A stretch of DNA of 40,884 bases, taken from UHGV virus genome UHGV-2008032. One strand, 5' to 3'. Below the pieces are notes generated by a model. That model worked only from the letters and a program-made list of their open reading frames with translations, was not told the origin of the DNA and ran no database searches. A program made the translations under genes and the position numbers. This DNA comes from a virus. Positions 7,057 to 30,007 of this stretch are shown in pieces. How positions within the stretch are numbered: the first letter of the stretch is position 1; each line of letters begins with the position of its first letter.

Positions 7057-7069
7057 GATTTTCTCCTGA

Positions 7070-7585: not shown

Positions 7586-8293
7586 TTATGCCGCCTGTTT
7601 TAGTTCGTTAACTCTGATGTTCATTACCTGAACGCATTTAGCCTGCGCATCCTCATTGCCAGCCATTAATTGCCAGTCATGCTGATAACGTTCTATGAGT
7701 TTTTTCTTGTCAGTTTCTGTTGATGCATAATCGCTGAAGTCTTTCAGGATTTGTTCGCAGTCAACCGATGGAGATTTCTGGTTGGTATTTTCTGGTGATG
7801 GTTTGTTATCTGATGCTGGGATTGCCCAGCCCGGCAGCGATGGAGGGAGCCAGTAAAATCCTGTTCCATCCTTCAGTTTTGCCCTGTGCCACCCCTGTTT
7901 TTTATCGGGAGATGTTTGTGCGAAACCTTCCTCAAGGTTATACAGATACCGACCGATTCCCCACTGAACGGCAGCGCGCTTCATTGCACCGGAACGACCA
8001 CCTTTGACGGCTTCTACCTGCGTGTTTTCAGCAGCATCCCATTTGGTTACCCATTCGGAATCAATCTTTATTGATATGCCGCATTCAACGCCGCCGTTGT
8101 TGGGAATATCGCGGTATTCATTGCGCCATCCTGCTTTGCCACAAACATCGTCAAGGCGTTTCATGATTGCCCGGTTCGTAACATAAGCCAGCACCATAGC
8201 CCACACCTTGCCATCGCGTGTTTTACCGCTTTGCTGTATTCGCCATTCGATATCTTCAGGGCAGAATGGCTCATCGAATTTGTTCAAATCCAT
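7586..8293 (-). CDS. Single-strand annealing recombinase, Rad52/Sak-like
   Basis: Motifs ...GKAGWRNEY...SGAMKRAAVQWGIGRYLY resemble Rad52-family annealing proteins; immediately upstream of ssb. Confidence 0.55.
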   Translation of the reverse strand: MDLNKFDEPFCPEDIEWRIQQSGKTRDGKVWAMVLAYVTNRAIMKRLDDVCGKAGWRNEYRDIPNNGGVECGISIKIDSEWVTKWDAAENTQVEAVKGGRSGAMKRAAVQWGIGRYLYNLEEGFAQTSPDKKQGWHRAKLKDGTGFYWLPPSLPGWAIPASDNKPSPENTNQKSPSVDCEQILKDFSDYASTETDKKKLIERYQHDWQLMAGNEDAQAKCVQVMNIRVNELKQAA

Positions 8294-11932: not shown

Positions 11933-12824
11933 CATATCTAATCTAGCCGAAGCCAGAGAGGCCAGAAGGCTACAACAACCGCATCAAAGCAGCGGTAAGG
12001 GGTATGCCTTGCTGCACCGTAAAATTATGGATGTGCCGTTTTACAAGGACGCAGAAGCTGCGCATCTGTGGGTTCACTTAATCCTCAAAGCAAAGCATAC
12101 GCCTGAGTATGTAATGACTGACGCAGGAGAAATTCTGGTAGGCAGAGGGAAGCTACTTGGCGGTAGAAACTCTCTGGCGTTTGAAACAGGACTCAAACCA
12201 GATCGCGTTCAGTACCTGCTTAGAAAGTTCAAAAAACTCGGCATGATTGACTGGGTTTCACACGGTAAATTCTCAGTTTTCTCGGTAGAGAAATATGACG
12301 ATTATCAGTCAAATTTTGTACCAGCAGATTACCAGCAAATTACCACCTCAAAGCCAGCAATACCAATGCCTGCAAGCAATACTGTACCAGCAGATTACCA
12401 GCAAATTACCACAGATAAAGAATATAATAATATTATCTCTAATACTGACGTATTAGAGAGTACCGCAGCAGACAAAAAGTCTGACAAGAAAAAACCTTCC
12501 GTTAGCTGTCAGGATGTTGTCGATGCTTACCACGAAATCCTTCCTGAAGCGCCAAGAATCCGCGCACTGAATGACAAGCGTAAAAACCAGATCCGAACGT
12601 TCTGGCGCAAAGCCGGAGTGATAACCCGCCAGCTTGACGGGCATGGGTTCACGATGCAGGACTGGAGAAATTATTTGAGCTACGTAGGCGAAAATTGCCG
12701 ATGGATGTTCGAAGAGCGTCCAAACCATCAACGCGGAACTGTCTGGCACAAAAAGGGATTTGATTTCCTGCTTAACGATAATACCTACCTGAAAGTTCGT
12801 GAGGGTGAACACGATGACCGATAA
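11925..12824 (+). CDS. Replication initiator, lambda O-like, with internal origin iterons
   Basis: Position after cII and before the helicase; contains direct repeats and an AT-rich block as lambda ori does inside O. Confidence 0.6.
12317..12412 (+). repeat. Origin-like iterons: two perfect 30-bp direct repeats TGTACCAGCAGATTACCAGCAAATTACCAC
   Basis: Copies at 12317..12346 and 12383..12412, each with two ATTACCA sub-repeats; AT-rich stretch 12413..12460 follows. Confidence 0.6.
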
Positions 12825-14250
12825 TTTTTATGCGCCGCCCCATAGCATCGAGGCAGAGCAGGCGGTGATTGGTGGATTGCTTCTGGATGATGACAGCAGT
12901 GAGCGCGTCCAGAAAGTTCTGGCGATGCTGAAGCCTGATTCATTTTACAGCCGACCACACAAAATCATTTTCGAAGAAATAACCAGAATGCACCGTGAGC
13001 AAAAGCCAGTAGATGGCCTGACGCTTTTCGATGAACTGGAGCGTAAATCGTTAACTGTGTCTGTTGGCGGTTTTGCTTATATAGCTGAGATCGCAAAGAA
13101 CACGCCAAGCGCCGCAAACATCGTTGCCTATGCAATGCAGGTTCGCGAAACCGCAATGGAACGCTACGCCATCAACCGCATGACTGAAGCGACGGAATTG
13201 CTCTATTCCCGCAACGGAATGACTGCGACGCAGAAGTACGAAGCTATTCAGTCGATTTTCACGCAACTGACAGACCATGCAAAAACCGGATCGCGTCGCG
13301 GCCTTCGCTCATTTGGTGAGGTTATGGAAGACTGGGTTAGCGACCTTGAGAAGCGATTTGACCCGTCAGGCGAACAACGAGGAATGAGCACAGGGATCCC
13401 ATCGCTGGACAGGATGCTGTCACCGAAAGGTCTGGTGAAAGGCTCTCTGTTTGTCATTGGCGCTCGCCCTAAGATGGGGAAAACGACGCTATACAGCCAG
13501 ATGGCAATCAACTGCGCAGTGCATGAGAAAAAGCCCGCTCTGATGTTCAGCCTTGAAATGCCCGGTGACCAGATACTGGAAAAACTGGTAGGACAGAAGT
13601 CAGGTGTTAACCCGAATATTTTTTACCTTCCGGCGACAAATGACGCTGATGACGGCTATCAGGGTGATTACGATGGTGACTTCAACAGGGCGATCGAAAC
13701 AGCCAATCGCTTGAGTGAAATCGACCTGCTTTACATCGACGACACGCCGGGATTATCTCTGGCTCAAATAGTCAGCGAAAGTCGTCGAATCAAGCGAGAA
13801 AAAGGATGTGTTGGCATGATTCTGGTCGATTACCTGACACTAATGACTGCTGAGAAGGCCGATCGCAACGACCTTGCTTACGGCATGATCACCAAAGGAC
13901 TGAAGAACCTTGCCAAAGAGCTTGATTGCGTTGTTGTGCTTCTGACGCAGCTTAACCGCGCACTGGAAAGCAGAACCAATAAACGCCCATTACCAAGTGA
14001 CTCACGAGATACAGGGCAGATTGAACAGGATTGCGATTATTGGGTGGGGATCCATCGTGAAGGTGCTTTTGATGACAGTGTTCCACCTGGTGAAACCGAA
14101 CTAATCCTTCGTCTCAATCGTCATGGCAATACCGGCACGGTGTATTGCATTCAGGCAAATGGCTCTATTTATGACACAGACCAACAGTCCGCTGAAATGC
14201 GCCGCCGTGAACGCGAGGAACCGCAATCCAAGAAGAAAGGAGGATTCTGA
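12814..14250 (+). CDS. Replicative DNA helicase, DnaB family
   Basis: Walker A GARPKMGKTT; DnaB-like N-terminal domain; ATG 12814 overlaps the upstream stop. Confidence 0.85.
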   Translation: MTDNFYAPPHSIEAEQAVIGGLLLDDDSSERVQKVLAMLKPDSFYSRPHKIIFEEITRMHREQKPVDGLTLFDELERKSLTVSVGGFAYIAEIAKNTPSAANIVAYAMQVRETAMERYAINRMTEATELLYSRNGMTATQKYEAIQSIFTQLTDHAKTGSRRGLRSFGEVMEDWVSDLEKRFDPSGEQRGMSTGIPSLDRMLSPKGLVKGSLFVIGARPKMGKTTLYSQMAINCAVHEKKPALMFSLEMPGDQILEKLVGQKSGVNPNIFYLPATNDADDGYQGDYDGDFNRAIETANRLSEIDLLYIDDTPGLSLAQIVSESRRIKREKGCVGMILVDYLTLMTAEKADRNDLAYGMITKGLKNLAKELDCVVVLLTQLNRALESRTNKRPLPSDSRDTGQIEQDCDYWVGIHREGAFDDSVPPGETELILRLNRHGNTGTVYCIQANGSIYDTDQQSAEMRRREREEPQSKKKGGF

Positions 14251-14334
14251 TGACCATCTACATCACTGAGCTAATAACAGGGGCTATTTACACAGTAGCC
14301 CTTTTTTATTGGATTAAGAACGAGGGGGATCCTG

Positions 14335-14547
14335 ATGGACACCGTTAACGGAATGTGTTCAGACGCACCGCGTGCCAAAAAATGTAAATGCGGAAAATCA
14401 CCGACAATATTCGACATGGAGAACGGGTGCCAAATCTACTGCGCTAACCACGCTGCTGTGGCGGCCGCGAATTATCGCAGTGCGGTAACGGAGTGGAATA
14501 ACCTGAAATCTGTTAGAGAGGGAAGTCATGAAAAAACTAACCTTTGA
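14335..14547 (+). CDS. Small cysteine-rich hypothetical protein
   Basis: 70 aa; GAGGGG upstream of ATG; CKCG...CQIYC pattern. Confidence 0.4.
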   Translation: MDTVNGMCSDAPRAKKCKCGKSPTIFDMENGCQIYCANHAAVAAANYRSAVTEWNNLKSVREGSHEKTNL

Positions 14548-14968
14548 AATTCGATCTCCGGCGCATCAGCAAAACGCTATTCACGCAGTACAGCAAATCC
14601 TTCCAGATCCAACCAAGCCAATCGTAGTGATCATTCAGGAGCGCAACCGTAGCTTAGACCAAAACAGGAAGCTATGGGCCTGCTTAGGTGACGTCTCTCG
14701 TCAGGTTGAATGGCATGGTCGCTGGCTGGATGCAGAAAGCTGGAAGTGTGTGTTTACCGCAGCATTAAAGCAGCAGGACGTTGTTCCTAACCTTGCCGGG
14801 AATGGCTTTGTGGTAATAGGCCAGTCAACCAGCAGGATGCGTGTAAGCGAATTTGCGGAGCTATTAGAGCTTATACAGGCATTCGGTACAGAGCGTGGCG
14901 TTAAGTGGTCAGACGAAGCGCGACTGGCTCTCGAATGGAAAGCGCGATGGGGAGACAGGGCGGCATGA
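14528..14968 (+). CDS. ninB: NinB recombination protein
   Basis: Sequence closely matches lambda NinB as I recall it ([28 protein letters not shown]...). Confidence 0.8.
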
Positions 14969-15147
14969 GACGACAGCGACGAAGTATCACCGACATAATC
15001 TGCGAAAACTGCAAATACCTTCCAACGAAACGCTCCAGAAATAAACGCAAGCCAATCCCGAAAGAATCTGACGTAAAAACCTTCAACTACACGGCTCACC
15101 TGTGGGATATCCGGTGGCTTAGAGAACGTGCGAGGAAAACAAGGTGA
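14965..15147 (+). CDS. ninE: NinE-like protein
   Basis: 60 aa; ATG overlaps the ninB stop (ATGA); resembles lambda NinE. Confidence 0.55.
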
Positions 15148-15314
15148 TTGACCAAAATCGAAGTTACGAACAAGGAAGTGTCGAGCGAGCTTTAACGTGC
15201 GCTAATTGCGGTCAAAAGCTGCATTTTCTGGAAGTTCACGTGTGCTCCGATTGCTGCGCAGAACTGATGAGCGATCCGAATAGCTCAATGTGCGAGGAAG
15301 AAGACGATGAATGA
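15144..15314 (+). CDS. ninF: NinF-like small zinc-binding protein
   Basis: Hand-translated 56 aa; GTG overlaps the ninE stop; ...[22 protein letters not shown]... resembles lambda NinF. Confidence 0.5.
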
Positions 15315-16032
15315 GTTAATAAATGGCAATGCCATCAAAATGACAAGCATTGAAATCGCTGAGTTGGTAGAAAGCCGCCATAGCAATGTAAAAGTATCCA
15401 TAGATAGATTGGTGAAACGTGGCGTTATCAAGCCTCCTGCATTGCAGCACACTAACATAATCAATTATTTAGGTGTTATTACCGGGAAGCGTGATTTCTA
15501 CGTCTTCGAGGGCGAACAAGGTAAGCGAGACAGTATTGTCGTTGTTGCCCAGTTGTCGCCAGAGTTCACCGCTCGCCTTGTTGACCGCTGGCGAGAGCTT
15601 GAAGAAGCTGCGGTTAATATCCCCAAAACGCTACCAGAAGCGTTGCGCCTTGCTGCTGATCTTGCTGAGCAGAAAATGCAACTGGAAAACCAGCTCGCAA
15701 TTGCCGCACCTAAAGTTGAGTTTGCCGATCGCGTTGGCGAGGCCAGCGGAATTTTGATTGGAAACTTTGCAAAGGTTGTCGGTATTGGTCAAAACAAACT
15801 GTTTGCATGGATGCGCGATCACAAAATCCTTATTGCTTCAGGTTCCCGGCGAAATGTGCCAATGCAGGAATATATGGATCGCGGCTATTTCACAGTGAAA
15901 GAAACAGCGGTCAACACAAATCACGGAATACAGATATCGTTCACCACAAAAATCACCGGGCGTGGTCAACAGTGGCTGACCAGAAAGCTGCTCGATAACG
16001 GAATGCTGAAAGTAACAGGGGAGGCTGCTTAA
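15307..16032 (+). CDS. Rha-family regulatory protein with KilAC antirepressor C-terminal domain
   Basis: N-terminal Rha-like region; C-terminal ...FAKVVGIGQNKLFAWMRDHKIL... KilAC-like. Confidence 0.6.
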   Translation: MNELINGNAIKMTSIEIAELVESRHSNVKVSIDRLVKRGVIKPPALQHTNIINYLGVITGKRDFYVFEGEQGKRDSIVVVAQLSPEFTARLVDRWRELEEAAVNIPKTLPEALRLAADLAEQKMQLENQLAIAAPKVEFADRVGEASGILIGNFAKVVGIGQNKLFAWMRDHKILIASGSRRNVPMQEYMDRGYFTVKETAVNTNHGIQISFTTKITGRGQQWLTRKLLDNGMLKVTGEAA

Positions 16033-16322
16033 TGGCTAACCTACGCAAAGAAGCGCGCGGCAGAGAATGCCAGGTACGTATTTACGGCGTATGCAATGGC
16101 AACCCTGAAACTACAGTTCTGGCACATTACCGGATGGCTGGAATTTGCGGAACGGGAATGAAGCCTGACGACCTGATCGGCGCATGGGCTTGTAGTGACT
16201 GCCACGCGGAGATCGACCGACGCACCCATAATCTCGACAACAAAGACGCCAGACTTTACCACCTCGAAGGCGTAATCAGGACGCAGGCGATACTGCTGAA
16301 GGAGGGGAAGATTAAGTCATGA
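16032..16322 (+). CDS. DUF1364 protein (YbcO-like putative nuclease)
   Basis: ...ARGRECQVRIYGVCNGNPETTVLAHYR...CSDCHAEIDRRTH pattern resembles DLP12 YbcO as I recall it; precedes rusA. Confidence 0.55.
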   Translation: MANLRKEARGRECQVRIYGVCNGNPETTVLAHYRMAGICGTGMKPDDLIGAWACSDCHAEIDRRTHNLDNKDARLYHLEGVIRTQAILLKEGKIKS

Positions 16323-16681
16323 ACGAATATCAGTTTGTGCTTCCTTACCCGCCGTCGGTGAACACCTACTGGCGAAGACGGGGAAGCCAATACTACATCA
16401 GCGATAAAGGCCAGAAATACCGAAAAGACGTTCAGCAAATCATCCGCCAACTCAAGTTAGACATTTTCACCAAATCACGACTCCGCATCAAAGTCATCGC
16501 AGACGTTCCAGACTCCCGCCGCCGCGACCTCGACAACATCCTGAAAAGTTTACTCGACTCCCTTATCCACGCCGGATTTGCGGAAGACGACGAGCAATTC
16601 GATGACATTCGCGTAATTCGTGGTGTGAAAGTACCAGGTGGAAGACTTGGAATAAAAATCACCGAACTGGAGAACGCATGA
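16319..16681 (+). CDS. rusA: RusA Holliday-junction resolvase
   Basis: 120 aa; ...YPPSVNTYWRRRG...RRRDLDNILKSLLD... RusA-like. Confidence 0.8.
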   Translation: MNEYQFVLPYPPSVNTYWRRRGSQYYISDKGQKYRKDVQQIIRQLKLDIFTKSRLRIKVIADVPDSRRRDLDNILKSLLDSLIHAGFAEDDEQFDDIRVIRGVKVPGGRLGIKITELENA

Positions 16682-16863
16682 ACGCCACAATTCAAACGAT
16701 ACCAGAGCTTCTTATCCAGACACGAGGCAATCAGACCGAAGTGGCGAGGATGCTTTCCTGTGCAAGAGGAACAGTGCTCAAGTACAACCGAGACAGCAAA
16801 GGTGAGCGTCACGTAATAGTTAACGGCGTCCTGATGGTAACGCCAGGCAAAAAGGGAAGATGA
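16678..16863 (+). CDS. ninH: NinH-like small DNA-binding protein
   Basis: ...YGNQTEVARMLSCARGTVLKY... matches the lambda NinH pattern. Confidence 0.6.
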   Translation: MNATIQTIPELLIQTRGNQTEVARMLSCARGTVLKYNRDSKGERHVIVNGVLMVTPGKKGR

Positions 16864-17381
16864 TGAGCATAAGAGAACTAAACCTCACCAAAGAACAGCA
16901 CGATTGGCTGAATTGCTGGCTTGAACTGTGGGGCGCATGGGTTTATTCAGGTCGTCTGGAAAAGCGCATGAGCAGCGTAATAGCGAAGTTCATGGAGAGC
17001 GTAGAGCCGGGAAGAGTTATGACAAGGCCAATGTGCAATGATGATGATGGAATGTTGATTTCTCAGGTCGTCGATTCCGTCATGTACATTGACAAGAAAG
17101 CCTTTGGCATCCTCCTCAGCTACTACGCTCATGGTTCATCTAAGCGAGCAATTGCATCCTACTATCACGCGACTGCAAAGCCACGCAAGATGTGTGGACG
17201 TGGTGGCGAGGGATGGAGAAAACCTTCACTGGCAACCTGTAGAAACGAAATTGACGACATCCTGAAAGCGTCGTTATTTGTTTTGTACCAGCCAATGCAA
17301 AATGCTTTCAAAATGCGTAAACGTGTTGAGAAAGTTAAGCATGTTGCTGTTAAAAGCCTTGACATGCAATTATCCATTTAG
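16860..17381 (+). CDS. Late-gene antiterminator Q-like protein
   Basis: Last gene of the nin region; ...WGAW...RPMCNDDDGMLI... pattern resembles Q-family proteins; followed by a strong promoter. Confidence 0.6.
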   Translation: MMSIRELNLTKEQHDWLNCWLELWGAWVYSGRLEKRMSSVIAKFMESVEPGRVMTRPMCNDDDGMLISQVVDSVMYIDKKAFGILLSYYAHGSSKRAIASYYHATAKPRKMCGRGGEGWRKPSLATCRNEIDDILKASLFVLYQPMQNAFKMRKRVEKVKHVAVKSLDMQLSI

Positions 17382-17388
17382 CCATAAT
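17359..17388 (+). promoter_or_regulatory. Late promoter candidate (PR-prime-like): TTGACA-18-CATAAT
   Basis: -35 at 17359..17364 inside the Q 3' end; -10 at 17383..17388 just after the Q stop. Confidence 0.55.
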
Positions 17389-17398
17389 TAGAAGGTAA

Positions 17399-17440
17399 GC
17401 TGCCGTTAGTGACTCTTAAGTTGCAATGGTGGCTTTTTTT
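17399..17440 (+). terminator. Possible tR-prime-like terminator (weak hairpin plus T7 run)
   Basis: 9-bp stem with three G-U pairs and a 17-nt loop, then TTTTTTT at 17434..17440. Confidence 0.3.
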
Positions 17441-17598
17441 GTTTGCACAACAGGTAAGAGCATTGAACCCGCAGACCTCGCGGAATTGGTGAAAGGTGCC
17501 GCGCAGTGCTCTTATCGTTGTGGTGAACTCAATGGCGAGCTAGCAGATAGGCGACAGTGAAAATACTAGTCATGTAGCTGACCGCCGCGCGTACTGCA

Positions 17599-17647
17599 AT
17601 CGGCAGCGCACCGATGGAAGCCGGTTCGATTCCGGCCGCCACAACCC
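17599..17647 (+). other. tRNA-like remnant (anticodon-arm-like and T-arm-like hairpins, no acceptor or D arm)
   Basis: ATCGG/CAGCGCA/CCGAT hairpin then GCCGG/TTCGATT/CCGGC T-arm with canonical GGTTCGATTCC loop; no matching 5' half found. Confidence 0.25.
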
Positions 17648-17808
17648 AAACTGAGCCGTAGCCACTGGCTATCCTGAATTCATCAGTGATAGTTACGCTG
17701 CGGCCTTCTACACATGACCTTCGTGAAAGCGGGTGGTTCAATTCTGCTGTCTTCTTCACGTTAAAAGAGGAATTAGGCTTCGAAAATGCAAAAACTTGCA
17801 AAAATGAC

Positions 17809-17836
17809 TTGAAAACGAGTTTTGAAACTGCATAAT
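17809..17836 (+). promoter_or_regulatory. Candidate promoter TTGAAA-16-CATAAT upstream of the cargo leader
   Basis: -35 at 17809..17814, -10 at 17831..17836 in an AT-rich spacer. Confidence 0.35.
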
Positions 17837-17918
17837 TCCTATATGCTCGGACGTCAAAGGCGAAAGAGCTTACCCACCAGCGAAGATGCCTTGTGCGGAG
17901 CGGTGGGAAACACATTCA

Positions 17919-17947
17919 AGCCCTTGCAGAAATGCAGGGGCTTTTTT
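17919..17947 (+). terminator. Strong intrinsic terminator 31 nt upstream of the first cargo gene
   Basis: 10-bp stem AGCCCTTGCA/TGCAGGGGCT with GAAA tetraloop followed by TTTTTT. Confidence 0.7.
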
Positions 17948-17977
17948 ATTGGCTCAGTGCCACCAGGTGAACACCGT

Positions 17978-18529
17978 ATGCACACGGCGATCATTTGCGC
18001 TTCCGGACCTTCCCTCACCCACGACGACTGCCAGAAAGCCATTGGCGCTGGATTACCCGTTATTGCGGTGAATTCTTCATGGCGCGCGGTGCCGGGATGC
18101 TCTCACATTTACGCGGGTGATCTGCGCTGGTGGGATGTGAACATTCCCGCGCTGCCCGATGGCCCCGAACGCTGGTCATGTAACCGGAGAGCACACACCC
18201 GATACGGCGTGAGCCTCTTCCCGACAGATACCAGCGGCACATTCAATTCGGGGCAGAGAGCAATCCTGTTCGCTCACTGGCTGGGTGCCAGTAGCATCAT
18301 CCTTCTGGGCTTCGATTGCTCAATCTCAAACGGTAGTCACTGGCACGGCGATCACACAGTCCTCGATAACCCGACAGCAGCGAACGTAAAGCGCTGGCAT
18401 GGCGAGTTTGCCCGGGTTGCGGCGCAGCTGCGTGGAAGCGTCAATATCATCAACAGCAGCCGCCAGACGGCGCTTAATTGCTTTCGTCGCTTACCTCTTG
18501 AAGCTGCGATCAGCGAGGTTACATGCTGA
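17978..18529 (+). CDS. Cargo protein A: CstII/GT42-like or DUF115-like Rossmann-fold putative glycosyltransferase
   Basis: ATG 17978 with AGGTGA 7 nt upstream, after the terminator; motifs IICASGPSL, VIAVNSS, NSGQRAILFAHWLGASSIILLGFDCS, HWHGDH parallel the GNGPSL and YLSGIDFY layout of CstII-type enzymes. Confidence 0.45.
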   Translation: MHTAIICASGPSLTHDDCQKAIGAGLPVIAVNSSWRAVPGCSHIYAGDLRWWDVNIPALPDGPERWSCNRRAHTRYGVSLFPTDTSGTFNSGQRAILFAHWLGASSIILLGFDCSISNGSHWHGDHTVLDNPTAANVKRWHGEFARVAAQLRGSVNIINSSRQTALNCFRRLPLEAAISEVTC

Positions 18530-19464
18530 ATCCTCCGATTTACATCGATGGCATGCTGGGAATGGGAGATACCATTTACCAGCGCGCTTTCGTCAAACAA
18601 CTGCCTGCTGGGACATTCATTAAGACGGCATGGCCGGAGCTTTACGAAGATCTGCCGGTGAAAGTTGTCCGAAGTGACACCACGCTCAGAACGCAGCGTA
18701 AAAATGAGTTTCGCAGTTCGGCAAAGTTTTATCCGCCGCCATCGCCACGACAGACGAAGCGAATATTTTACGGACCGTATGATCTGCGGCGCGGTTCGAT
18801 ATTTGATGCGATGCGACGCCAGTTCGGCGTAACGCCAGCAGCGCTTGATTTGCCATCCTTTGGCCCGTCGCAGTTTACGCACCAAAAGCCGATCGCCGTT
18901 ATCCGTCCGGCAACGGTTCGTTCTGAATGGCGTAGCGACTCCCGAAACCCTGACCCCGATTACCTCCTGCGCGCATCGAGAATCCTGCGGAAACATTTCT
19001 GCGTGATTAGCGTTGCTGATTTGCAGGACGGGGAAGAGTGGCTGGTGGGTGAAGAACCAGAGGCGGATCTGAAAATGCACGCTGGCGAGCTCAATATCAA
19101 AGAGCTGATGCGCCTGGTTGAGCATGCCGCTGTCGTGGTTACGCCTGTTGGCTGGGCGCTGCCCGCTGCCATTGCGTACAAAACACCTGTTTACGTTGTC
19201 GCTGGTGGGCGCGGTGGGCATAACGCTCCCGAGATAGTCACCGATCCGGCGATGGATTTATCCCGCGTTGGCTGGGCAATCCCGGACAATTATTGTCGCT
19301 GCGAAGCGTGGGATCACCATTGCGACAAACGCATCTTCAACTTTGATTCAAAATTCGAGACATGGCTGAATGAAGTCGTTTTATCAGGAACTGAACAGCG
19401 GGCTGGTATTCCTCCCGGAGCTGGGCATCGGTCGTTATCCGGTTCCGGCATCACGCCCGTATGA
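18523..19464 (+). CDS. Cargo protein B: GT-B fold, GT9 (heptosyltransferase)-like putative glycosyltransferase
   Basis: 7-nt overlap with gene A; N-terminal IDGMLGMGDTIYQRAFVKQL and C-terminal AAVVVTPVGWALPAAIAYKTPVYVVAGG resemble the GT9 layout; Cys/His cluster CRCEAWDHHC. Confidence 0.45.
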   Translation: MLNPPIYIDGMLGMGDTIYQRAFVKQLPAGTFIKTAWPELYEDLPVKVVRSDTTLRTQRKNEFRSSAKFYPPPSPRQTKRIFYGPYDLRRGSIFDAMRRQFGVTPAALDLPSFGPSQFTHQKPIAVIRPATVRSEWRSDSRNPDPDYLLRASRILRKHFCVISVADLQDGEEWLVGEEPEADLKMHAGELNIKELMRLVEHAAVVVTPVGWALPAAIAYKTPVYVVAGGRGGHNAPEIVTDPAMDLSRVGWAIPDNYCRCEAWDHHCDKRIFNFDSKFETWLNEVVLSGTEQRAGIPPGAGHRSLSGSGITPV

Positions 19465-19984
19465 CGAGCAGTATTTCGCGAAGTATCAGCAGCTTGCCGA
19501 CACCGAAACAGGCAGAGCCTTAACGCAATCCCGTATTGAGCTGGTGGCGCGCCATTTTCACGGTCCTGTTCTCGACGTTGGTATCGGTGCCGGTCAGTTC
19601 GTCTCTACCCGACCGGGAACGCTTGGGTATGACATTAATCCGGCTGGTATCGCCTGGCTGAACGAGCGGGGCGCATTCGCTGACCTCTACGCCAGTCAGT
19701 GGCGCGCGCTGACGATGTGGGATGTCCTGGAGCACATCGACGAGCCGGAGCTGGCGGTACAGCAGGCTACAGAGTTTGTTTTCGTGTCGATCCCCATTTT
19801 TACCGATGCCGGAGACATTCTTCGCTCGCACCATTTCAGGAAGAACGAGCACATCTGGTATTTCACTGACGACGGTATTAAGCGCTGGTTTGCAGAGCAG
19901 GGCTTCGAATGCGCTGAACAGAACACAATCGAATGCCAGTTAGGGCGTAAGGGCGTCGCTTCGTACGCTTTCCGCCGCGTTTAG
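19370..19984 (+). CDS. Cargo protein C: class I SAM-dependent methyltransferase
   Basis: Motif I VLDVGIGAGQF, acidic loop YDINPAG, WDVLEHIDEP; no DPPY/NPPW DNA-methylase motif; start overlaps gene B by 95 nt. Confidence 0.55.
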   Translation: MKSFYQELNSGLVFLPELGIGRYPVPASRPYDEQYFAKYQQLADTETGRALTQSRIELVARHFHGPVLDVGIGAGQFVSTRPGTLGYDINPAGIAWLNERGAFADLYASQWRALTMWDVLEHIDEPELAVQQATEFVFVSIPIFTDAGDILRSHHFRKNEHIWYFTDDGIKRWFAEQGFECAEQNTIECQLGRKGVASYAFRRV

Positions 19985-20058
19985 TCCCCTCTTAGCCCAT
20001 TGCATTTGGGTTTATTCCAGTTTCGCACACATCACCCGCAAACAGGCGAGGTCAACCT

Positions 20059-20217
20059 ATGAATAGCTCTCACGGGATTTTTGAACAAACCATGAAATGG
20101 ATCGCGCTATATCTGCCGTCAGTTTACGCCGGGTTATGCGCTCTGGGCATCTCAGCGCTTATCGACATACGCGCAGGGAAGCCGAAACTCTACACCGCCA
20201 CTGGCGCGCTAAATTAA
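20059..20217 (+). CDS. Small hydrophobic protein (52 aa) upstream of the holin
   Basis: Hand-translated; GAGGT 7 nt upstream of ATG; one predicted membrane segment. Confidence 0.3.
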   Translation: MNSSHGIFEQTMKWIALYLPSVYAGLCALGISALIDIRAGKPKLYTATGALN

Positions 20218-20248
20218 ATAGAGCAAATCCCCTTATTGTGGGTAAGAC

Positions 20249-20572
20249 ATGAAGATGCCAGAAAAACATGACCTGTTAGCCGCCATTCTCGCGGCAAAGG
20301 AACAAGGCATCGGGGCAATCCTTGCGTTTGCAATGGCGTACCTTCGCGGCAGATATAATGGCGGTGCGTTTACAAAAACAGTAATCGACGCAACGATGTG
20401 CGCCATTATCGCCTGGTTCATTCGTGACCTTCTCGACTTCGCCGGACTAAGTAGCAATCTCGCTTATATAACGAGCGTGTTCATCGGCTACATCGGTACT
20501 GACTCGATTGGTTCGCTTATCAAACGCTTCGCTGCTAAAAAAGCCGGAGTAGAAGATGGTGGAAATCAATAA
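20249..20572 (+). CDS. S: Class I holin, lambda S-like with dual start
   Basis: [20 protein letters not shown]... closely matches lambda S as I recall it, including the Met-Lys-Met dual-start motif. Confidence 0.9.
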
Positions 20573-21032
20573 TCAACGTAAGGCGTTCCTCGATATGCTG
20601 GCGTGGTCAGAGGGAACTGATAACGGACGTCAGAAAACCAGAAATCATGGTTATGACGTCATTGTAGGCGGAGAGCTATTCACTGATTACTCTGATCACC
20701 CTCGCAAACTTGTCACGCTAAATCCGAAACTCAAATCAACAGCCGCCGGACGCTACCAGCTTCTTTCCCGTTGGTGGGATGCCTACCGCAAGCAGCTTGG
20801 CCTGAAAGACTTCTCTCCGAAAAGCCAGGACGCTGTGGCATTGCAACAGATTAAAGAGCGTGGCGCTTTACCGATGATTGACCGCGGTGATATTCGTCAG
20901 GCAATCGACCGTTGCAGCAATATCTGGGCTTCACTGCCGGGCGCTGGTTATGGCCAGTTCGAGCATAAGGCTGACAGCCTGATTGCAAAATTCAAAGAGG
21001 CTGGCGGAACGGTCAGAGAGATTGAGGTATGA
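20556..21032 (+). CDS. R: Endolysin, lambda R-like lytic transglycosylase
   Basis: [39 protein letters not shown]... closely matches lambda R as I recall it. Confidence 0.9.
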
Positions 21033-21466
21033 GCAGAGTCACCGCGATTATCTCCGCTCTGGTTATCTGCATCATCGTTTGCCTGTCATGGGCTGTTAAT
21101 CATTACCGGGATAACGCCATCGCCTACAAAGCCCAGCGCGACAAAGCCACATCCATCATCGCTGACATGCAGAAGCGTCAACGTGATGTAGCAGAACTTG
21201 ACGCCAGATACACAAAGGAGCTTGCTGATGCTAACGCGACTATCGAAAGTCTCCGTGCTGATGTTTCTGCTGGTCGTAAGCGCCTGCAAGTCGCCGCCAC
21301 CTGTGCAAAGTCAACGACCGGAGCCAGCAGCATGGGCGATGGAGAAAGCCCAAGACTTACAGCAGATGCTGAACTCAATTATTACCGTCTCCGAAGTGGA
21401 ATCGACAGGATAACCGCGCAGGTTAACTACCTGCAGGAATACATCAGGACGCAATGCCTGAAATAA
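21029..21466 (+). CDS. Rz: Inner-membrane spanin Rz
   Basis: N-terminal membrane anchor and coiled-coil periplasmic domain; overlaps the R stop. Confidence 0.85.
21228..21413 (+). CDS. Rz1: Outer-membrane lipoprotein spanin Rz1 (embedded in Rz, +1 frame)
   Basis: ATG 21228 inside Rz; lipobox LVVSAC; proline-rich mature region. Confidence 0.7.
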
Positions 21467-21498
21467 TTTTTTTGCAAATCACAAAGTCAATTTAATGA

Positions 21499-21520
21499 GC
21501 CTCGCGATGCGGGGCTTTTT
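21499..21520 (+). terminator. Intrinsic terminator after the lysis cassette
   Basis: 7-bp stem GCCTCGC/GCGGGGC followed by TTTTT. Confidence 0.5.
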
Positions 21521-21664
21521 ATATCTGAATTTCACAGCGCATCTCACGCGCATATTAACGAGAGCCTTTCAGTAAGCGAGCCTGAGAAATGCCGTTATAG
21601 GTGGCGACCTCTCTCGGGCGGCTTTTCTGTGAGACAGGCTCACTTTCTAAAAGGTAAAGACGCT

Positions 21665-22183
21665 ATGAATCATCAATTGGCTAATCTCGATTTCCGGGAC
21701 ATGGTGGTTGTTTCTGGTGATCGCGTGATCACAACCTCCCGCAAGGTAGCAGCTTACTTCGACAAGCAGCATCACCACATCATTCAGAAAATCGAAAAGC
21801 TAGACTGTTCGGATGAATTTCTAACCAGCAACTTTTCGCGGGTTACCTATGAACACAAGGGTAATCAGTATGTTGAATATGAAATTTCCAAAGACGGCGC
21901 GATGTACATCATCATGTCGTTTACCGGCAAAAAAGCTGCCGCCATCAAAGAGGCGTTTATCAAAGCATTTAATTGGATGCGTGACAGGCTGATGGAGATG
22001 GCTCACTCATACCAAAGAGAGCACAACGAGTTAATGCTGGAGTTCATGAAGGAAAAGGATGTTGCCAGTATGTCAGGACGCTTGCTGAACCGCTGGGGCA
22101 GGATCAAAAAACCGCAACTCATAGCAAGAATCGAAAGGCTTGAGCAGCAGGCGCAAATATCGATCCCCGGACTGCCAAAGTGA
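21665..22183 (+). CDS. Rha-family phage regulatory protein
   Basis: ...SRKVAAYFDKQHHHIIQKI...MSFTGKKAAAIKEAFIKAFNWM... Rha-like; start placed at ATG 21665. Confidence 0.55.
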   Translation: MNHQLANLDFRDMVVVSGDRVITTSRKVAAYFDKQHHHIIQKIEKLDCSDEFLTSNFSRVTYEHKGNQYVEYEISKDGAMYIIMSFTGKKAAAIKEAFIKAFNWMRDRLMEMAHSYQREHNELMLEFMKEKDVASMSGRLLNRWGRIKKPQLIARIERLEQQAQISIPGLPK

Positions 22184-22535
22184 CCATTCCAAAGCCCATC
22201 TACGGGTGGGCTTGATAATGAAACCGTGATTTACATCCCCACAATCCGGGTATGTAAAAGATAGTTCAGGCGAGAACAGATTTAACTAAATCTGTGCACC
22301 ACCAGTTACGGCAGTACCACGAAGCAACCCAAGCCAGTAAGTGGGGAAATAACACTGGCAGCCACTGAAAGATGAACCTCCAGCCTTATGGCAAAAAAGA
22401 TTCTTTGTGGTGGCGGGCTGATGGAAAGACATCGGTTATTGCAGAGACCATTCAATGAGTGGTCTCGACAATGGCTTATACCCTACACGGGATAACTTAA
22501 CTGATATCCCTTTTAACGGATAAACGGAGCCAATA

Positions 22536-23033
22536 ATGGCAAAGCTCACAGACAAACAAGAGCTGTTTGCCCATCCGGATGATGTGTATGTCGGAGAGTG
22601 TGTGATTTATACCGGCTACATAAATAAGCGAGGGTATGGGCAGAAGCACATTTCACGAAAGCCGCACTACGCACATCGAATCGCATACTGCGAAGCTAAC
22701 GGAATTTCGCTAGATAGCATCAAGGACCTGGTTGTTAGGCATAAATGCGATAATCCATCATGCGTGAATCCTGACCATCTGATTATAGGTACTGTCGCTG
22801 ACAATAATCGTGACAGGTCAAGGCGAGGCAGAAACTCATACCCTGACCGTTCAGGTGAAAAGAACGGAATGGCGAAATTAAAAGAGTGCGATGTCATCTG
22901 CATTCGACGTGAATATGTCCGCGGGAGCATTGGTAGGGGGCTTAGATCCTTATCAGAGAAATATGGCGTATCGACGACCATGATTGCTGACATCGTTAAT
23001 TATAGAAATTGGAGCAACGTTTCGGGGGTGTGA
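22536..23033 (+). CDS. HNH endonuclease (terminase-associated)
   Basis: H-N-H motif region ...HRIAYCEANG...RHKCDNPSCVNPDHL...; immediately upstream of the small terminase. Confidence 0.75.
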   Translation: MAKLTDKQELFAHPDDVYVGECVIYTGYINKRGYGQKHISRKPHYAHRIAYCEANGISLDSIKDLVVRHKCDNPSCVNPDHLIIGTVADNNRDRSRRGRNSYPDRSGEKNGMAKLKECDVICIRREYVRGSIGRGLRSLSEKYGVSTTMIADIVNYRNWSNVSGV

Positions 23034-23034
23034 T

Positions 23035-23589
23035 TTGAAACAGCTCACACCTAAGCAGGAACTGTTCTGCCGGGAATATTTAAAAGATTTAAACGCCACT
23101 CAGGCAGCTATCAGGGCGGGTTACAGCGAGAAAACTGCTCGCGCCACTGGTAGCGAGAACCTGTCAAAACCTGACATAGCAGATCGCATTGCTGAGCTAA
23201 AGGCTGAACGCAATGAAGAGGTAGGTATAGACGCTGCCTATGTATTGCGACGGCTGACTGAAATCGATCAGATGGACGTGCTTGACATTCTGCTTGCCAA
23301 TGGCGAACTGAAGCCCATTAAAGACTGGCCTAAGGTATGGCGCACAACGCTATCAGGAATGGATGTCGTCGAGATGGCATCAGCAGATAGTGCTGCTCTC
23401 CTGAAGAAAATCAAATGGCCTGATAAGGTTAAAAACCTTGAGTTGCTCGGGCGTCATGTTTCTGTTCAGGCGTTTAAAGACAATGTCAAAAATGAAGTGA
23501 CTGGTGCTGACGGAGGACCAGTCAGAACAGAAATTACCAACTTAACGCCGGAGCAGGCTGCAGAAGCGTATAAAAAAATGATGGGCTAA
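23035..23589 (+). CDS. Terminase small subunit
   Basis: ...[28 protein letters not shown]... small-terminase-like; TTG start 23035 chosen just after the HNH stop, but TTG 22984 is possible. Confidence 0.6.
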
Positions 23590-23591
23590 GT

Positions 23592-25214
23592 ATGCCGTTA
23601 CCATTTCCCTTCGATTTTAAACATCCTGATTACCAGATGGTTTTTGAATGGCGGATGGAACGCTTACAGCGCATTCGCCAGAACCCTGAAATATTGCCAG
23701 CACTAAAACAGTTTTACCGAACCAACCCGGCTCAGTTCATCATCGACTGGGGCATGACAACGGACCCGCGTAATATTGATTATGGCCTGCCGGTGACCAT
23801 TCCGTTTTTACTCTTCCCTAAGCAGGAGGAGTGGATCCACTGGATTATGGAACGCTGGGGCAATCGGGAGAATGGTATTACCGAAAAATCCCGTGAAATG
23901 GGACTCAGTTGGACCGCGATCGGACTGGCCTGCTCGCTTTGTCTCTTCAACAAAGAAATGGTCATCGGCTTCGGCTCCCGTAAAGAGGAATACGTCGACA
24001 GCACCGGTGACCCGAAGGCGCTGTTCTGGAAGGCGCGAAAGTTCGTGGAAACACTGCCCATCGAGTTTCGTGGTTCGTGGGACGAGAAGAAGCATGCGCC
24101 GTATATGCGCGTTGAGTTTCCAGATACTGGCGCGGTTATCAAAGGCGAGGCTGGCGACAATATCGGACGTGGTGACCGTACCACGCTCTACCTGGTGGAT
24201 GAAGCTGCATTCCTCCAGCGTCCTCTGTTGATTGATGCGGCGCTGTCGCAAACCACCCGTTGCCGTATTGACCTGAGCTCGGTTAATGGCATGGCGAACC
24301 CGTTCGCGCAGAAGCGCCACGGCGGAAAAATACCAGTATTCACGTTCCACTGGCGAGATGACCCGCGCAAGGATGAAGAGTGGTATCGCAGGGAGTGCGA
24401 GAAAATCGACAATCCGGTGGTGGTGGCGCAGGAACTTGACCTGAACTACAGCGCATCTGCGGAAGGCGTCCTGATCCCGTCCGACTGGGTACAGGCTGCC
24501 GTCGACGCGCATATCAAACTTGGTATTCAGCCAACGGGCAAGCGACTGGGCGCGATGGACGTCGCCGACGAAGGCAGGGACAAAAATTCCTTTTCCACCC
24601 GTCATGGCTTCCTCCTGGAGAATGTGCGGGAATGGTCCGGTGTGGGCAGCGACATTTATCAGTCCGTCGAGAAGGTCTTCGGTTTTTGCGAACAGGACAA
24701 CCTCGAAGAGTTTCGCTTTGACGAGGACGGGCTGGGCGCTGGCGTTCGCGGCGATGCACGCGCTATCAACGAACTGCGTAACGCTGCGCGCCGACCGTCA
24801 ATACTCGCCACACCGTTTCGAGGTAGTGGCGCGGTATTTGATCCGGATGATGAAGCTATTCGCGGGGACAACGGGCAAGCCGCCCGCCTGAACAAGGACT
24901 TCTTCGCTAACGCCAAGGCCCAGAGCTGGTGGCGGTTACGTAAACTTTTTCAGAATACCTGGCGCGCCGTGGTTGAAGGTATGGCTTACAACCCGGACGA
25001 AATCATCTCAATCAGCAGTAGCATGGCACTCAAAGATAAACTCATCATCGAGCTTTCGCAGCCGACCTATTCCATTAATGGTGTGGGAAAAATCGTTATT
25101 GATAAACAGCCTGACGGCACCAAGTCGCCGAACCTCGCCGACTCGGTGATGATCAGCTACGCGCCAATGAATTCAGCCCTGAACATCTGGGAGCTGCTAG
25201 GGAGACAGGCCTGA
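23592..25214 (+). CDS. Terminase large subunit
   Basis: 540 aa between small terminase and portal; acidic nuclease-like C-terminal region. Confidence 0.75.
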
Positions 25215-26680
25215 TGGCACGAAACAAGCAAGCCTCTCAGCGAACGGCGCAGGCCACCGCTGATGGCTACGAGAACTTTGTCGCCCGCGTGGGGATGCAG
25301 ACGCCTAACCAGCATTCAGCATCGACCTACCGGGCGAACTTCACCAGCCGCAACCGCATGCTGGTGGAATGGTCCTATCGTTCGTCCTGGATCATCGGCG
25401 AAGCGGTCGACGCTATCCCGGATGATATGACCCGCAAAGGCATTCGCATTACTTCGGAAATTGATGCAAAAGATCGCGGCATTCTCGAATCACAACTTGA
25501 TGAGTTGCAGATCTGGGATGCGCTGAACGACGTGCTGAAATGGTCTCGCCTCTACGGCGGCGCGGTCGGCTTCATCATGATCGAGGGGCAGGCACCAATG
25601 ACCCCGCTGCGGCTCGAAACCATTGGAGAAGGCAAGTTTAAGGGCATTCTCCCGCTTGACCGCTGGATGATTAACCCGGTGCTGACCCGTCGCATTAAAG
25701 AGATGGGGCCAGATCTCGGCAAACCTGAGTTTTACGACGTGGTGACCACTGCAACGGGCATCCCGGCCTGGCGCATCCATCACAGCCGCCTGATTCGCTT
25801 CGACGGGGTGACGCTACCATTCCAGCAGAAGATGACCGAAAACGAATGGGGAATGTCGGTTGTAGAGCGTATCTGGGATCGGCTTACTGCGTTCGACAGC
25901 GCCACTGTCGGCGCGGCGCAGCTTGTCTACAAAGCGCATCTGCGTACCTACAAAGTGAAAAAACTCCGTGAGCTTATTGCGCTGGGTGGCCCCGCGTTCG
26001 AAGCGCTGCTGAAGAACATCGATCTGATTCGCCAGTTCCAGAGCAATGAAGGCATGACGCTGATGGATTCCGAAGATACTTTCGAAACCCACCAGTACAG
26101 CTTCAGTGGTCTGGATGACATTCTTTCGCAGTTCGCTGAGCAGATCAGCGGTGCCGTTGGTATCCCGCTGGTACGCCTGTTCGGTCAATCCCCGAAAGGC
26201 TTCTCTACTGGTGATGCAGACCTCGCCAACTATTACGACCGGGTGAGTTCATTGCAGGAGCGCCGCTTACGGATTCCGATGCGCCGGATACTGGACATTA
26301 TGCACCGCTCGGAACTCGGTAAGCCGCTGCCGGACGATTTCACGTTTGAGTTTAACCCGCTCTGGCAAATGTCTGATGTCGATCGCTCAACGGTGGCGTT
26401 AAACACTACCAACGCAATCAGTACGGCGCTGGGTGATGGTCTGATGACACTGAAAGCCGCTATGACCGATTTGCGCGAAAATTCTGACGTAACCGGCATC
26501 GGGGCATCCATTACCGACGAGGACATAGAGAATGCCGAAGACGAAGCGCCGCCAGGCATCGGCGAACTTGGCGACAAACCGCCAGAGTCGCCAGGCGGAG
26601 ATCCGATATCGAACGAGCCTACGGCAGATAGCGCGGGCGGTCGGGGATATCGTAAATGGGCGCTACGATGGTTCAAATGA
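25214..26680 (+). CDS. Portal protein
   Basis: 488 aa after the large terminase; disordered acidic/Gly-rich C-terminus. Confidence 0.65.
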   Translation: MARNKQASQRTAQATADGYENFVARVGMQTPNQHSASTYRANFTSRNRMLVEWSYRSSWIIGEAVDAIPDDMTRKGIRITSEIDAKDRGILESQLDELQIWDALNDVLKWSRLYGGAVGFIMIEGQAPMTPLRLETIGEGKFKGILPLDRWMINPVLTRRIKEMGPDLGKPEFYDVVTTATGIPAWRIHHSRLIRFDGVTLPFQQKMTENEWGMSVVERIWDRLTAFDSATVGAAQLVYKAHLRTYKVKKLRELIALGGPAFEALLKNIDLIRQFQSNEGMTLMDSEDTFETHQYSFSGLDDILSQFAEQISGAVGIPLVRLFGQSPKGFSTGDADLANYYDRVSSLQERRLRIPMRRILDIMHRSELGKPLPDDFTFEFNPLWQMSDVDRSTVALNTTNAISTALGDGLMTLKAAMTDLRENSDVTGIGASITDEDIENAEDEAPPGIGELGDKPPESPGGDPISNEPTADSAGGRGYRKWALRWFK

Positions 26681-27305
26681 TAGCGTTACCGAAATAATGG
26701 ATGCGCTGGAGCGCTACAGCGAAATCATCACCCCCTGGGCGACTAAGGTTGCTGAGAGCTTCACCGCCGACATTGCGCGCCAGAATGAAAAGCAGTGGCG
26801 TCAACACAGCCGGAACATCAGCGCAGAGCTGCGCAACATGGTTGACCGCGCCCCGGTAGGCCAGGTGATGAAATCCATCGTCGCCGAGCAAATTAAGTAC
26901 ATCAAATCTCTGCCTCTTGAGGCCGCCGATCGGGTGTATGACATTCAGAACAAGGCCATCGAGGCCGTTGTGTCTGGTGGCCGCGCTGAACCATTCGCGA
27001 AAGAGATAGCAGCGTCCGGTGACGTGTCACGCTCACGAGCGAACCTTATCGCCCGGACTGAGCTTGGGCGCGCAACCGGCGCGCTCGATCAGGCGCGTGC
27101 GCTGTCAATCGGCTCGAATGGTTATATCTGGCGTACAGCCGAAGATGGCGACGTCCGGCATTCTCATCGAGAGATGGAAGGGAAGTTTGTCGAATGGGGC
27201 CGACCTCCAACGCTTGACGGCATGACCGGTCACGCTGGCGAGCTCCCGAACTGCCGCTGTTACAAAGAAATCGTCTTCCCCAACCCTCATTCTTATCTCG
27301 CCTGA
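26532..27305 (+). CDS. Head morphogenesis protein, Mu F-like
   Basis: C-terminal ...LIARTELGRATG...DGDVRHSHREMEGKFV...HAGELPNCRCYKE... MuF-like; start 26532 has GAGGA upstream but overlaps the portal by 149 nt. Confidence 0.6.
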   Translation: MPKTKRRQASANLATNRQSRQAEIRYRTSLRQIARAVGDIVNGRYDGSNDSVTEIMDALERYSEIITPWATKVAESFTADIARQNEKQWRQHSRNISAELRNMVDRAPVGQVMKSIVAEQIKYIKSLPLEAADRVYDIQNKAIEAVVSGGRAEPFAKEIAASGDVSRSRANLIARTELGRATGALDQARALSIGSNGYIWRTAEDGDVRHSHREMEGKFVEWGRPPTLDGMTGHAGELPNCRCYKEIVFPNPHSYLA

Positions 27306-27319
27306 ATCGCAGGTAAACC

Positions 27320-28540: not shown

Positions 28541-28544
28541 TCCA

Positions 28545-30001: not shown

Positions 30002-30007
30002 CAGCCA

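Follow-up and report, generated by a model that had tools for sequence, protein, structure and literature searches.

The 40,884-nucleotide viral genome UHGV-2008032 (this whole stretch of DNA is called the window below) carries nin and lysis genes of lambdoid type at positions 14528-21466, followed by the genes of a contractile tail. The question raised by this locus is where its two halves came from. The original prediction described lambda-like nin and lysis genes joined to a P2-like tail. The comparisons presented here uphold a mosaic of a lambdoid control, nin and lysis half with a contractile-tail half, but not the P2 origin of the tail. The window very probably represents a temperate lambdoid phage from the SEN34 (Brunovirus)-like group, whose complete genome lies here in circularly permuted form and combines control, nin, Q and lysis genes of the lambda/HK97/P22 pool with a virion module of the SEN34/Omnitron type. 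As a lambdoid myovirus it adds a further member to a kind already described, and its mosaicism is real but ordinary, a textbook example of how lambdoid phages exchange modules. The least understood part of the locus, and the sole feature that deserves follow-up, is a 2475-bp insert between the antiterminator gene Q and the holin gene S, which went unmentioned in the original prediction.

The baseplate gene J (Baseplate_J in Pfam) starts at 40320, runs to the last nucleotide of the window, 40884, and continues at 1-641. When joined, the two parts form a single uninterrupted open reading frame (ORF) of 401 amino acids. This continuous frame shows that the window is a whole genome of 40.9 kb in circular permutation and not a prophage with host flanks. 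Positions 1-2700 had been considered as a host flank. This was rejected, because Pfam shows the end of the tail module there and J is continuous through the ends. The minus strand carries int, xis and the early-left genes, up to a cI-type repressor gene, between 2.8 and 11.0 kb. The plus strand carries cro, cII, O, a DnaB-type helicase gene, the nin genes, Q, the lysis genes and the full virion operon from about 11.1 kb onwards (all features described below are on the plus strand unless stated otherwise). The early control region encodes an S24-helix-turn-helix (HTH) repressor, a Cro-like HTH protein, CII, an N peptide and the DnaB-type helicase, and so contains the combination of cI/cro/cII/N with O/P-type replication genes by which lambdoid phages are recognized.

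The nin genes are set between the replication genes and Q and are colinear with those of lambda, HK97 and CUS-3. NinB, a recombination mediator of the Orf family (14528-14968, Pfam NinB E = 7e-54), NinE (14965-15147, E = 7e-43), NinF (15144-15314, E = 5e-13) and NinH (16678-16863, E = 5e-23) all score above their Pfam cut-offs. In comparisons with lambda (NC_001416; tblastn for proteins, blastn for DNA), NinB is 98.6% identical at the amino acid level and 96.7% at the nucleotide level over 14516-14968. NinE and NinF are 81% and 91% identical, and the ninE-ninF DNA (14972-15309) is 93.2% identical to lambda 42097-42434. NinH, with 54% amino acid identity, has no DNA match in lambda. The ninB/ninE junction lies at 14968/14972. 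Since ninE directly abuts ninB, lambda ninC and ninD and the methyltransferase gene found at this place in HK97 are absent, as is lambda ninI.

The lambda match stops at about 15310, where a block matching HK97 starts. The first gene of the block, roi (15307-16032), encodes a DNA-binding protein with a KilAC/ANT domain (Pfam E = 3e-33) and a weakly Rha-like N terminus, the Phage_pRha domain scoring 24.8 bits, under the 29.9 cut-off. It is followed by the genes of a YbcO-like nuclease (16032-16322, Pfam YbcO E = 1e-43) and of the RusA resolvase (16319-16681, Pfam RusA E = 1e-16). These three genes occupy the position of lambda ninG, between ninF and ninH. Roi is 96% identical to HK97 roi at the nucleotide level, and the HK97 block equivalent to ybcO-rusA-ninH is 96.4% identical. 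The annotation of phages of the HK97/CUS-3 type lists roi, hkbD (YbcO family), rus and ninH in this very order. Therefore, the replacement of ninG by rusA and a YbcO-like gene and the insertion of a Rha/KilAC antirepressor, both pointed out in the original prediction, amount to the standard nin variant of HK97, HK022 and HK620. The genes had been placed correctly and the KilAC/ANT domain is clear, but the arrangement is not new and the Rha domain stays below the cut-off.

The HK97 match in turn stops at 16867, where a late antiterminator gene of the HK75/CUS-3 type starts (Q, 16860-17381; Pfam Phage_antitermQ, PF06530, E = 1e-25). This gene is 95% identical to that of CUS-3 at the nucleotide level and is not lambda Q: neither tblastn nor blastn found a match in lambda for Q, roi, ybcO or rusA. 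A promoter scan places a candidate late promoter pR' (TTGACA-18-CATAAT) at 17359-17388, and the predicted terminator tR' lies at 17398-17439. Both positions are those of the annotated pR' and Tr' of HK75, and the region is 98.9% identical to that phage. The left edge of the insert is formed by a conserved boundary sequence (17632-17736) that is found upstream of the lysis genes in lambda and CUS-3. Its segment 17640-17736 is 94.8% identical to lambda 44936-45032, and the whole of it is 97% identical to the CUS-3 element 'bsq3'.

A tRNA-like T-arm with an acceptor stem (GGTTCGATTCCGGCCGCCAC) overlaps the beginning of this boundary sequence at 17590-17650. Phage BTP1 and its relatives have tRNA-Thr and tRNA-Asn genes there. 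ARAGORN and Rfam do not call this element, and a permissive Rfam scan of 17350-18000 returned sub-threshold noise only, including a 17-nucleotide match to the T-arm of transfer-messenger RNA (tmRNA) type at 17620-17636. Judged by its sequence, the stretch is at most a remnant.

The lysis genes follow on the right side of the insert. The holin gene S (20249-20572) has the dual start MKM, belongs to a Pfam holin family and encodes a protein 99% identical to that of lambda. The R protein (20556-21032) has no Pfam match and is 98.7% identical to lambda R. The Rz gene (21029-21466, Pfam Rz) has Rz1 (21228-21413, Pfam Rz1) embedded in it in the +1 frame. The DNA of S, R and the 5' part of Rz (20212-21277) is 92.9% identical to lambda. 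The match stops at 21277, inside Rz, which is why the Rz protein is only 59% identical to its lambda counterpart; Rz1 is 41% identical and has no DNA match. The HK97 and CUS-3 matches run on past 21277 at 96-98%. The succession of Q, pR'/tR', a dual-start S, R and Rz with an embedded Rz1 is that of a lambdoid late and lysis region.

The close resemblance to lambda that had been noticed in the nin and lysis genes is thus confined to NinB, NinE, NinF, S and R (81-99% amino acid identity) and does not extend to NinH, Rz and Rz1. About 1.9 of the 6.9 kb of 14528-21466 (about 28%) aligns to lambda DNA, and it does so at 93-97%. NinH, Q, roi, ybcO, rusA, the 3' part of Rz, Rz1 and the insert fail to align, so that high nucleotide identity to lambda does not span the interval. 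HK97 aligns over 14250-14968, 14957-16867 and 20212-21570 at 96-97%, and CUS-3 over 14250-15138, 15172-17527, 17632-17736 and 20212-21459 at 95-98%. By nucleotide identity (95-97%), the nin and lysis segment is better termed HK97/CUS-3/HK75-like than lambda-like. The interval is a patchwork of short exchanged segments in which ninB, ninE and ninF go with lambda, roi-ybcO-rusA-ninH with HK97, and Q, pR' and tR' with HK75 and CUS-3. These are followed by the 2.5-kb insert, by S, R and the 5' part of Rz, which go with lambda, and by the remainder of Rz and Rz1, which goes with HK97 and CUS-3. The regulatory, replication, nin, Q and lysis genes as a whole were very probably drawn from a freely recombining lambda/HK97/P22 gene pool.

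The origin of the other half was examined by comparing 26 virion proteins by tblastn (E <= 0.01) with P2, Mu, SfV, lambda, SEN34 and Omnitron. All 26 have matches in SEN34, in the same order and at 34-96% amino acid identity, TerS and the fiber over part of their length only. All 26 also match the Citrobacter phage Omnitron (CP115737) colinearly, mostly at 89-100%. In P2 there is a single match, of the C-terminal half of Tfa, which is 36% identical to P2 G. Mu matches J (28%), Tfa and, weakly, TerL; Tfa is the sole protein with a match in lambda; and none of the 26 has a match in SfV.

The virion module starts with the packaging, head and neck genes (23035-32102), assigned with Pfam and PHROG. 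They encode TerS, TerL, the portal, a MuF protein, a DUF2213 protein, the cement protein, the major capsid protein (29060-30001), a DUF4054 protein, Neck1, an adaptor and the tail terminator. The Pfam families of this block include Phage_portal_3, Mu F-like, DUF2213, the E217 gp24/XM1 gp53 cement family and Major_capside. Its proteins are 77-96% identical to those of SEN34, except for g73 (53%) and for TerS, which matches at its C terminus only.

The tail genes start with the sheath (32106-33266, Pfam DUF3383), the tube (33277-33717, Pfam KPP10_Orf10), the tail chaperone (33721-34146, Pfam Phage_TAC_15) and the tape measure protein, which contains an SLT domain (34324-36339, Pfam). The proteins of this block are 54-77% identical to SEN34 and 76-100% to Omnitron. 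A Dit-like protein, a plug resembling Pam3 gp18, the hub and g117 are encoded within 36339-40884 (Pfam, PHROG). The rest of the baseplate block comprises the spike V, with gp138_N and GpV apex domains (39226-39966, Pfam), W (39966-40319) and J, and continues past the window ends with an I-like protein (602-1318, Pfam DUF2612), a glycine-rich tail fiber (1300-2199, Pfam Gly_rich_2) and Tfa (2184-2594, Pfam Caudo_TAP). Phage_cement/XM1_gp53, Major_capside, tail_terminator_9, DUF3383, KPP10_Orf10 and Pam3_gp18 all score above their cut-offs, and the hub family E217_GP41, at 25.8 bits, is just below its cut-off of 27.

The frameshifted tail chaperone of the original prediction is supported by the sequence. 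Three overlapping in-phase -1 slippery heptamers, G_GGA_AAT, A_AAT_TTT and T_TTT_TTG, are found close to the chaperone gene's end at 34089-34101 (GGGAAATTTTTTG), and the -1 ORF, which belongs to DUF6889 and has no canonical start codon, is open to 34331. The chaperone would be made in two forms, the longer one by a -1 frameshift at these heptamers. In the prophage of E. coli I3, the equivalent of the -1 ORF is listed as a separate gene in RefSeq.

Sheath, tube, chaperone, tape measure, hub, V, W, J, I, fiber and Tfa follow each other as in Mu gp39-gp50, so that the P2/Mu-like order described in the original prediction is Mu-like and not that of P2. The sheath-to-Tfa order can be read in this way only because the genome is circularly permuted. 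In P2, V-W-J-I-H-G come before FI-FII-E-T-U-D; in the window the sheath and tube genes precede those of the baseplate and fiber. The gpV apex motif and the Baseplate_J domain are shared with Mu/SfV- and P2-type tails, and likeness in sequence to Mu, SfV or P2 is essentially absent. No equivalents of P2 gpU, gpD and gpX or of the DNA circularisation protein Mu gp43 were detected.

A hybrid of phage lambda itself with a P2-like (Peduoviridae) phage, bearing a P2-type tail, is therefore very improbable and can be regarded as already refuted at the level of sequences and protein families. The GpV apex motif of the spike, the match of J to Baseplate_J, the partial likeness of Tfa to P2 G and the presence of the V-W-J-I-fiber-Tfa series are what such a hybrid would explain. 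It would leave 25 of the 26 virion proteins without a counterpart in P2, and the Pfam families of its sheath, tube, chaperone, hub and plug are not those of P2. P2 has its V operon ahead of its sheath operon, and the nin and lysis DNA is nearer to HK97 and CUS-3 than to lambda. The families of the head and tail proteins point instead to the lineage of SEN34, E217 and Pam3 as the source of the contractile tail, and not to P2 or Mu. Packaging, head and tail genes constitute a single colinear SEN34/Omnitron module, composed of families known from the simple-baseplate myophages E217, Pam3, XM1 and KPP10. The main value of the mosaic is a correction of annotation: the label 'P2-like' is to be dropped.

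The two halves meet at about 21467-23035, where the transition from lysis to virion genes runs through a gene of the Rha/ORF11CD3 regulator, the second Rha-family gene of the window (21629-22183, Pfam), and that of an HNH endonuclease immediately upstream of TerS (22536-23033, Pfam). The rha region (21467-22544) is 97-99% identical to lambdoid phages with other virion types, such as JEP4, Gally and APC_JM3.2, and a sequence shared so widely could bridge assemblies. A lambdoid siphovirus or podovirus could in this way have been misjoined to a myovirus. Such an artefact is extremely improbable and was rejected, because the same join (Q-cassette-lysis-rha/HNH-TerS/TerL) is found in closed E. coli chromosomes and in independent assemblies, and SEN34 and Omnitron, which are isolated phages, have the join as well. 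Furthermore, J is continuous through the window ends, and Tfa, attP and int are colinear with Omnitron. The pairing of the HNH gene with the terminase genes resembles that of HK97-like cos phages.

The preferred reading, a lambdoid phage with a SEN34/Omnitron-type virion, agrees with what is known of SEN34. A 2017 publication presented this phage as prototype for a new lambda cluster, with lambda-like regulation genes and, by electron microscopy, a contractile tail and the morphology of a myovirus (PMC5261728). Since SEN34 was described with the same layout, the architecture is already known. The phage represented by the window would presumably be viable, and its sheath and tube genes, together with the electron microscopy of SEN34, suggest a contractile tail. 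SEN34 (Brunovirus SEN34, in the 'temperate 26' lambda cluster) shares with the window int/xis, cI-cro-cII-O-P, nin genes, Q, S-R-Rz and the whole series from TerS through Tfa. It differs in having NinG and YlcG among its nin genes, another Q, other lysis genes and exo/bet/gam recombination, and in having no cassette between Q and the holin. The same combination of a lambdoid half with this virion module occurs in E. coli I3, 730V1, LHM10-1, DX6 and 25-06685, in six draft assemblies and in many IMG/VR contigs. At least 80% of the virion half is carried by 26 of 5426 complete E. coli genomes. The nucleotide identity of this half is 92% with Omnitron and 95-97% with the prophages of closed E. coli chromosomes.

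Two observations weigh against this assignment. The left half is not covered to 80% or more by any phage or E. coli record, so that the particular set of segments combined here is new; such a state is normal for the early regions of lambdoid phages. In addition, a megablast with SEN34 covers 47% of the virion half at 86% identity and very little of the early half. Nucleotide identity to SEN34 is thus probably below the level of a common genus, formally Brunovirus.

Relatives of the window share different parts of it. The phages HK97, HK022, HK75, HK620 and CUS-3 have the order ninB-ninE-ninF-roi-ybcO(hkbD)-rus-ninH-Q-S-R-Rz/Rz1 at 95-97% nucleotide identity, but have siphovirus or podovirus virion modules and none of them carries the Q-S cassette; HK97 differs additionally by its methyltransferase gene between ninB and ninE and by a different Q. 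Lambda shares ninB, ninE, ninF, S, R and the 5' part of Rz (93-97%) and the boundary sequence upstream of S; it has ninC, ninD, ninG and ninI, and its Q, O/P, Red recombination genes and whole virion module are unrelated to those of the window. In the I3 prophage of E. coli (NZ_CP195969), the cassette is 99.75% and the nin block 97% identical, whereas Q is of lambda type, the lysis cassette contains a GH19 endolysin, and the replication module, the integrase and the integration site are different.

The insert between Q and S occupies 17737-20211, with edges at 17736/17737, directly after the boundary sequence, and at 20211/20212, and it makes up 36% of 14528-21466. It is absent from lambda, HK97, CUS-3, SEN34 and Omnitron. 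Three overlapping genes form the cassette. Gene 1 (17978-18529) encodes a protein of 183 amino acids that has the fold of the Maf catalytic domain and represents a minimal Maf/sialyltransferase-like domain. Maf has 632 residues, and the domains that flank its catalytic domain are missing here. Gene 2 (18523-19464, 313 amino acids) encodes a GT-B glycosyltransferase similar to family GT9, as suggested by an AlphaFold2 model (pLDDT 92) and Foldseek, and corresponds to PHROG 6804. The best Foldseek match of the model is the autotransporter heptosyltransferase TibC (4rb4/4rap) with E = 1.5e-10 and a probability of 1.0. The next matches, with E between 1e-6 and 1e-4, are the lipopolysaccharide (LPS) heptosyltransferases WaaC and WaaF and a GT9 protein. 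The residues C258, C260, H265 and C267 (C-x-C-x4-H-x-C) are invariant in 54 homologs. Gene 3 (19370-19984, 204 amino acids) encodes a class I S-adenosylmethionine (SAM)-dependent methyltransferase (Pfam Methyltransf_23, E = 1e-10; PHROG 6564). Sequence-level searches were less telling: gene 2 has no match in Pfam, NCBIfam or the PDB, NCBIfam has no match for any of the three genes, and a sequence-profile search of the PDB with gene 1 gave noise only. A small hydrophobic ORF of 41-52 residues (20059/20092-20217) follows the three genes where the insert borders on S; it is called as a gene in one related assembly and has no family match.

The leader of the insert can be recognized in Omnitron. 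The segment 17733-17946 is 93.9% identical to that phage, where it lies directly before the holin gene. Omnitron shares the attP-int region with the window at 94%, but keeps only this 214-bp leader and lacks the cassette. The leader contains a second promoter-like site (17809-17836, promoter scan) and, downstream of it, a strong hairpin with a T-run, which resembles an intrinsic terminator (17918-17943). This unit is situated about 400 bp downstream of the HK75-type pR'/tR', and 17809-17943 may represent a second late promoter-terminator unit that was acquired by recombination. Q would load at pR', and the polymerase would then read through tR' and the terminator at 17918-17943 to transcribe the cassette, the lysis genes and the whole virion operon.

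The cassette is widespread in phages of Enterobacterales and Pseudomonas. At the nucleotide level, it is found in about 9 of 5426 complete E. coli genomes, and a nucleotide search of 50,697 phage records hit only its flanks, homologs being found at the protein level alone. Prophages of Enterobacter, Salmonella, Citrobacter, Rahnella, Kluyvera, Pantoea and Serratia commonly carry it. The synteny of the three genes is preserved in all 80 IMG/VR loci retrieved. In all 11 close contexts inspected the cassette is situated between the late antiterminator and holin genes and accompanies a SEN34-type virion module, as in the window, and the type of Q and the lysis, nin and replication genes all vary. 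Distant copies (55-61% identity for m2) occur in phages that have HK97-type or different heads, where Rz and terS flank them. A tie of the cassette to the SEN34-type virion was therefore rejected as a general rule.

More remote homologs are found in other phages. The proteins of orf7, orf12 and orf13 of Pseudomonas phage D3 and gp10-12 of PAJU2 are homologs of cassette genes 1-3 (32-47% amino acid identity) and are encoded in late or morphogenetic clusters. D3 differs from the window in that the homologs are among the head-tail connector genes, with gene 1 apart from genes 2 and 3. P1 has a homolog of gene 1 in its late pmgO/pmgP region and is not among the phage matches for gene 2. Both pmgO and pmgP of P1 are dispensable according to CRISPR interference (PMC10695390). 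Homologs of the cassette are also present in jumbo phages. In every context examined the cassette is part of a late operon, and its presumed late co-expression with lysis and morphogenesis genes is the common factor of these contexts.

What the cassette might do can be approached from its presumed late expression and its enzymes. Among solved structures, those closest to the two transferases are of enzymes that glycosylate proteins. Taken together, this makes the glycosylation of virion proteins, followed by methylation, the leading hypothesis, although a tentative one. In a possible scheme, the TibC-like heptosyltransferase and the Maf-like transferase would glycosylate virion proteins and the methyltransferase would modify the sugar. 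The more specific proposal that the Maf-like and TibC-like transferases and the SAM methyltransferase constitute a late-expressed protein O-glycosylation system acting on virion proteins is doubtful as it stands. Several points count against glycosylation of the virion: the LPS heptosyltransferases of family GT9 match gene 2 nearly as well (E of about 1e-6), the cassette accompanies unrelated head types with no common substrate evident, and SEN34 and Omnitron do without it. Neither a publication on the cassette nor a functional study of it came up in literature searches that covered glycosylation of phage virions, heptosyltransferases and pmgO/pmgP.

The similarity of gene 2 to WaaC and WaaF, whose GT9 fold it shares, would suit a target other than protein. 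This could be the LPS core of the host, the modification of which would result in lysogenic conversion or prevent the progeny from sticking to debris, or it could be the phage DNA before packaging. The promoter-like site at 17809-17836 could allow expression independent of Q. Mu Mom is an example of DNA modification expressed late, and the DNA of T4 is glucosylated by GT-B enzymes, which also counts for a non-protein target. However, a strong terminator separates the 17809-17836 site from gene 1, and late expression would leave little time for remodelling the LPS of the outer membrane. Furthermore, Pfam scans of the window detected no partner of the hydroxymethylase, dioxygenase or DNA methyltransferase type. 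A non-protein target is somewhat less likely than virion proteins, whose glycosylation continues to be the leading hypothesis.

If virion proteins are indeed the substrate, virion glycosylation, shown so far in mycobacteriophages, would also occur in temperate phages that infect Enterobacterales and Pseudomonas, and D3 orf7, orf12 and orf13 and the pmgO/pmgP region of P1 would gain a function. The modification would also affect the stability of phages with potential therapeutic use, their recognition by the immune system and their interactions with receptors.

The remaining features concern integration and accessory genes. The integrase gene (2793-3956, minus strand, Pfam Phage_integrase) is next to the 3' half of a tRNA-Thr(CGU) gene, which was read from the sequence at about 2728-2788 and extends from the anticodon loop to the CCA end. 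The ends of E. coli prophages and the start of the Omnitron record map to 2733-2735, and therefore this tRNA half next to int is likely the core of attP. The phage would integrate into the tRNA-Thr(CGU) gene, presumably thrW, via this site. Neither tRNA nor Rfam scans of the whole window called anything. In the E. coli LHM10-1 prophage locus, RefSeq annotates a 110-nucleotide 'tRNA-OTHER' between the head morphogenesis and DUF2213 genes (22987-23096 of that locus), for which no counterpart was found in the window.

The equivalent of the lambda P gene is that of the DnaB-type helicase (12799-14250). The early-left recombination genes (6760-8293, minus strand) are of the P22/HK620 type and not lambda exo/bet/gam; they encode a Rad52/22-family annealase, a single-stranded DNA-binding protein and the anti-RecBCD protein Abc2. 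A DUF4236 gene on the minus strand (38713-39003) interrupts the baseplate block between hub/g117 and the spike. This gene, which is also present in the I3 prophage of E. coli, probably represents a small moron.

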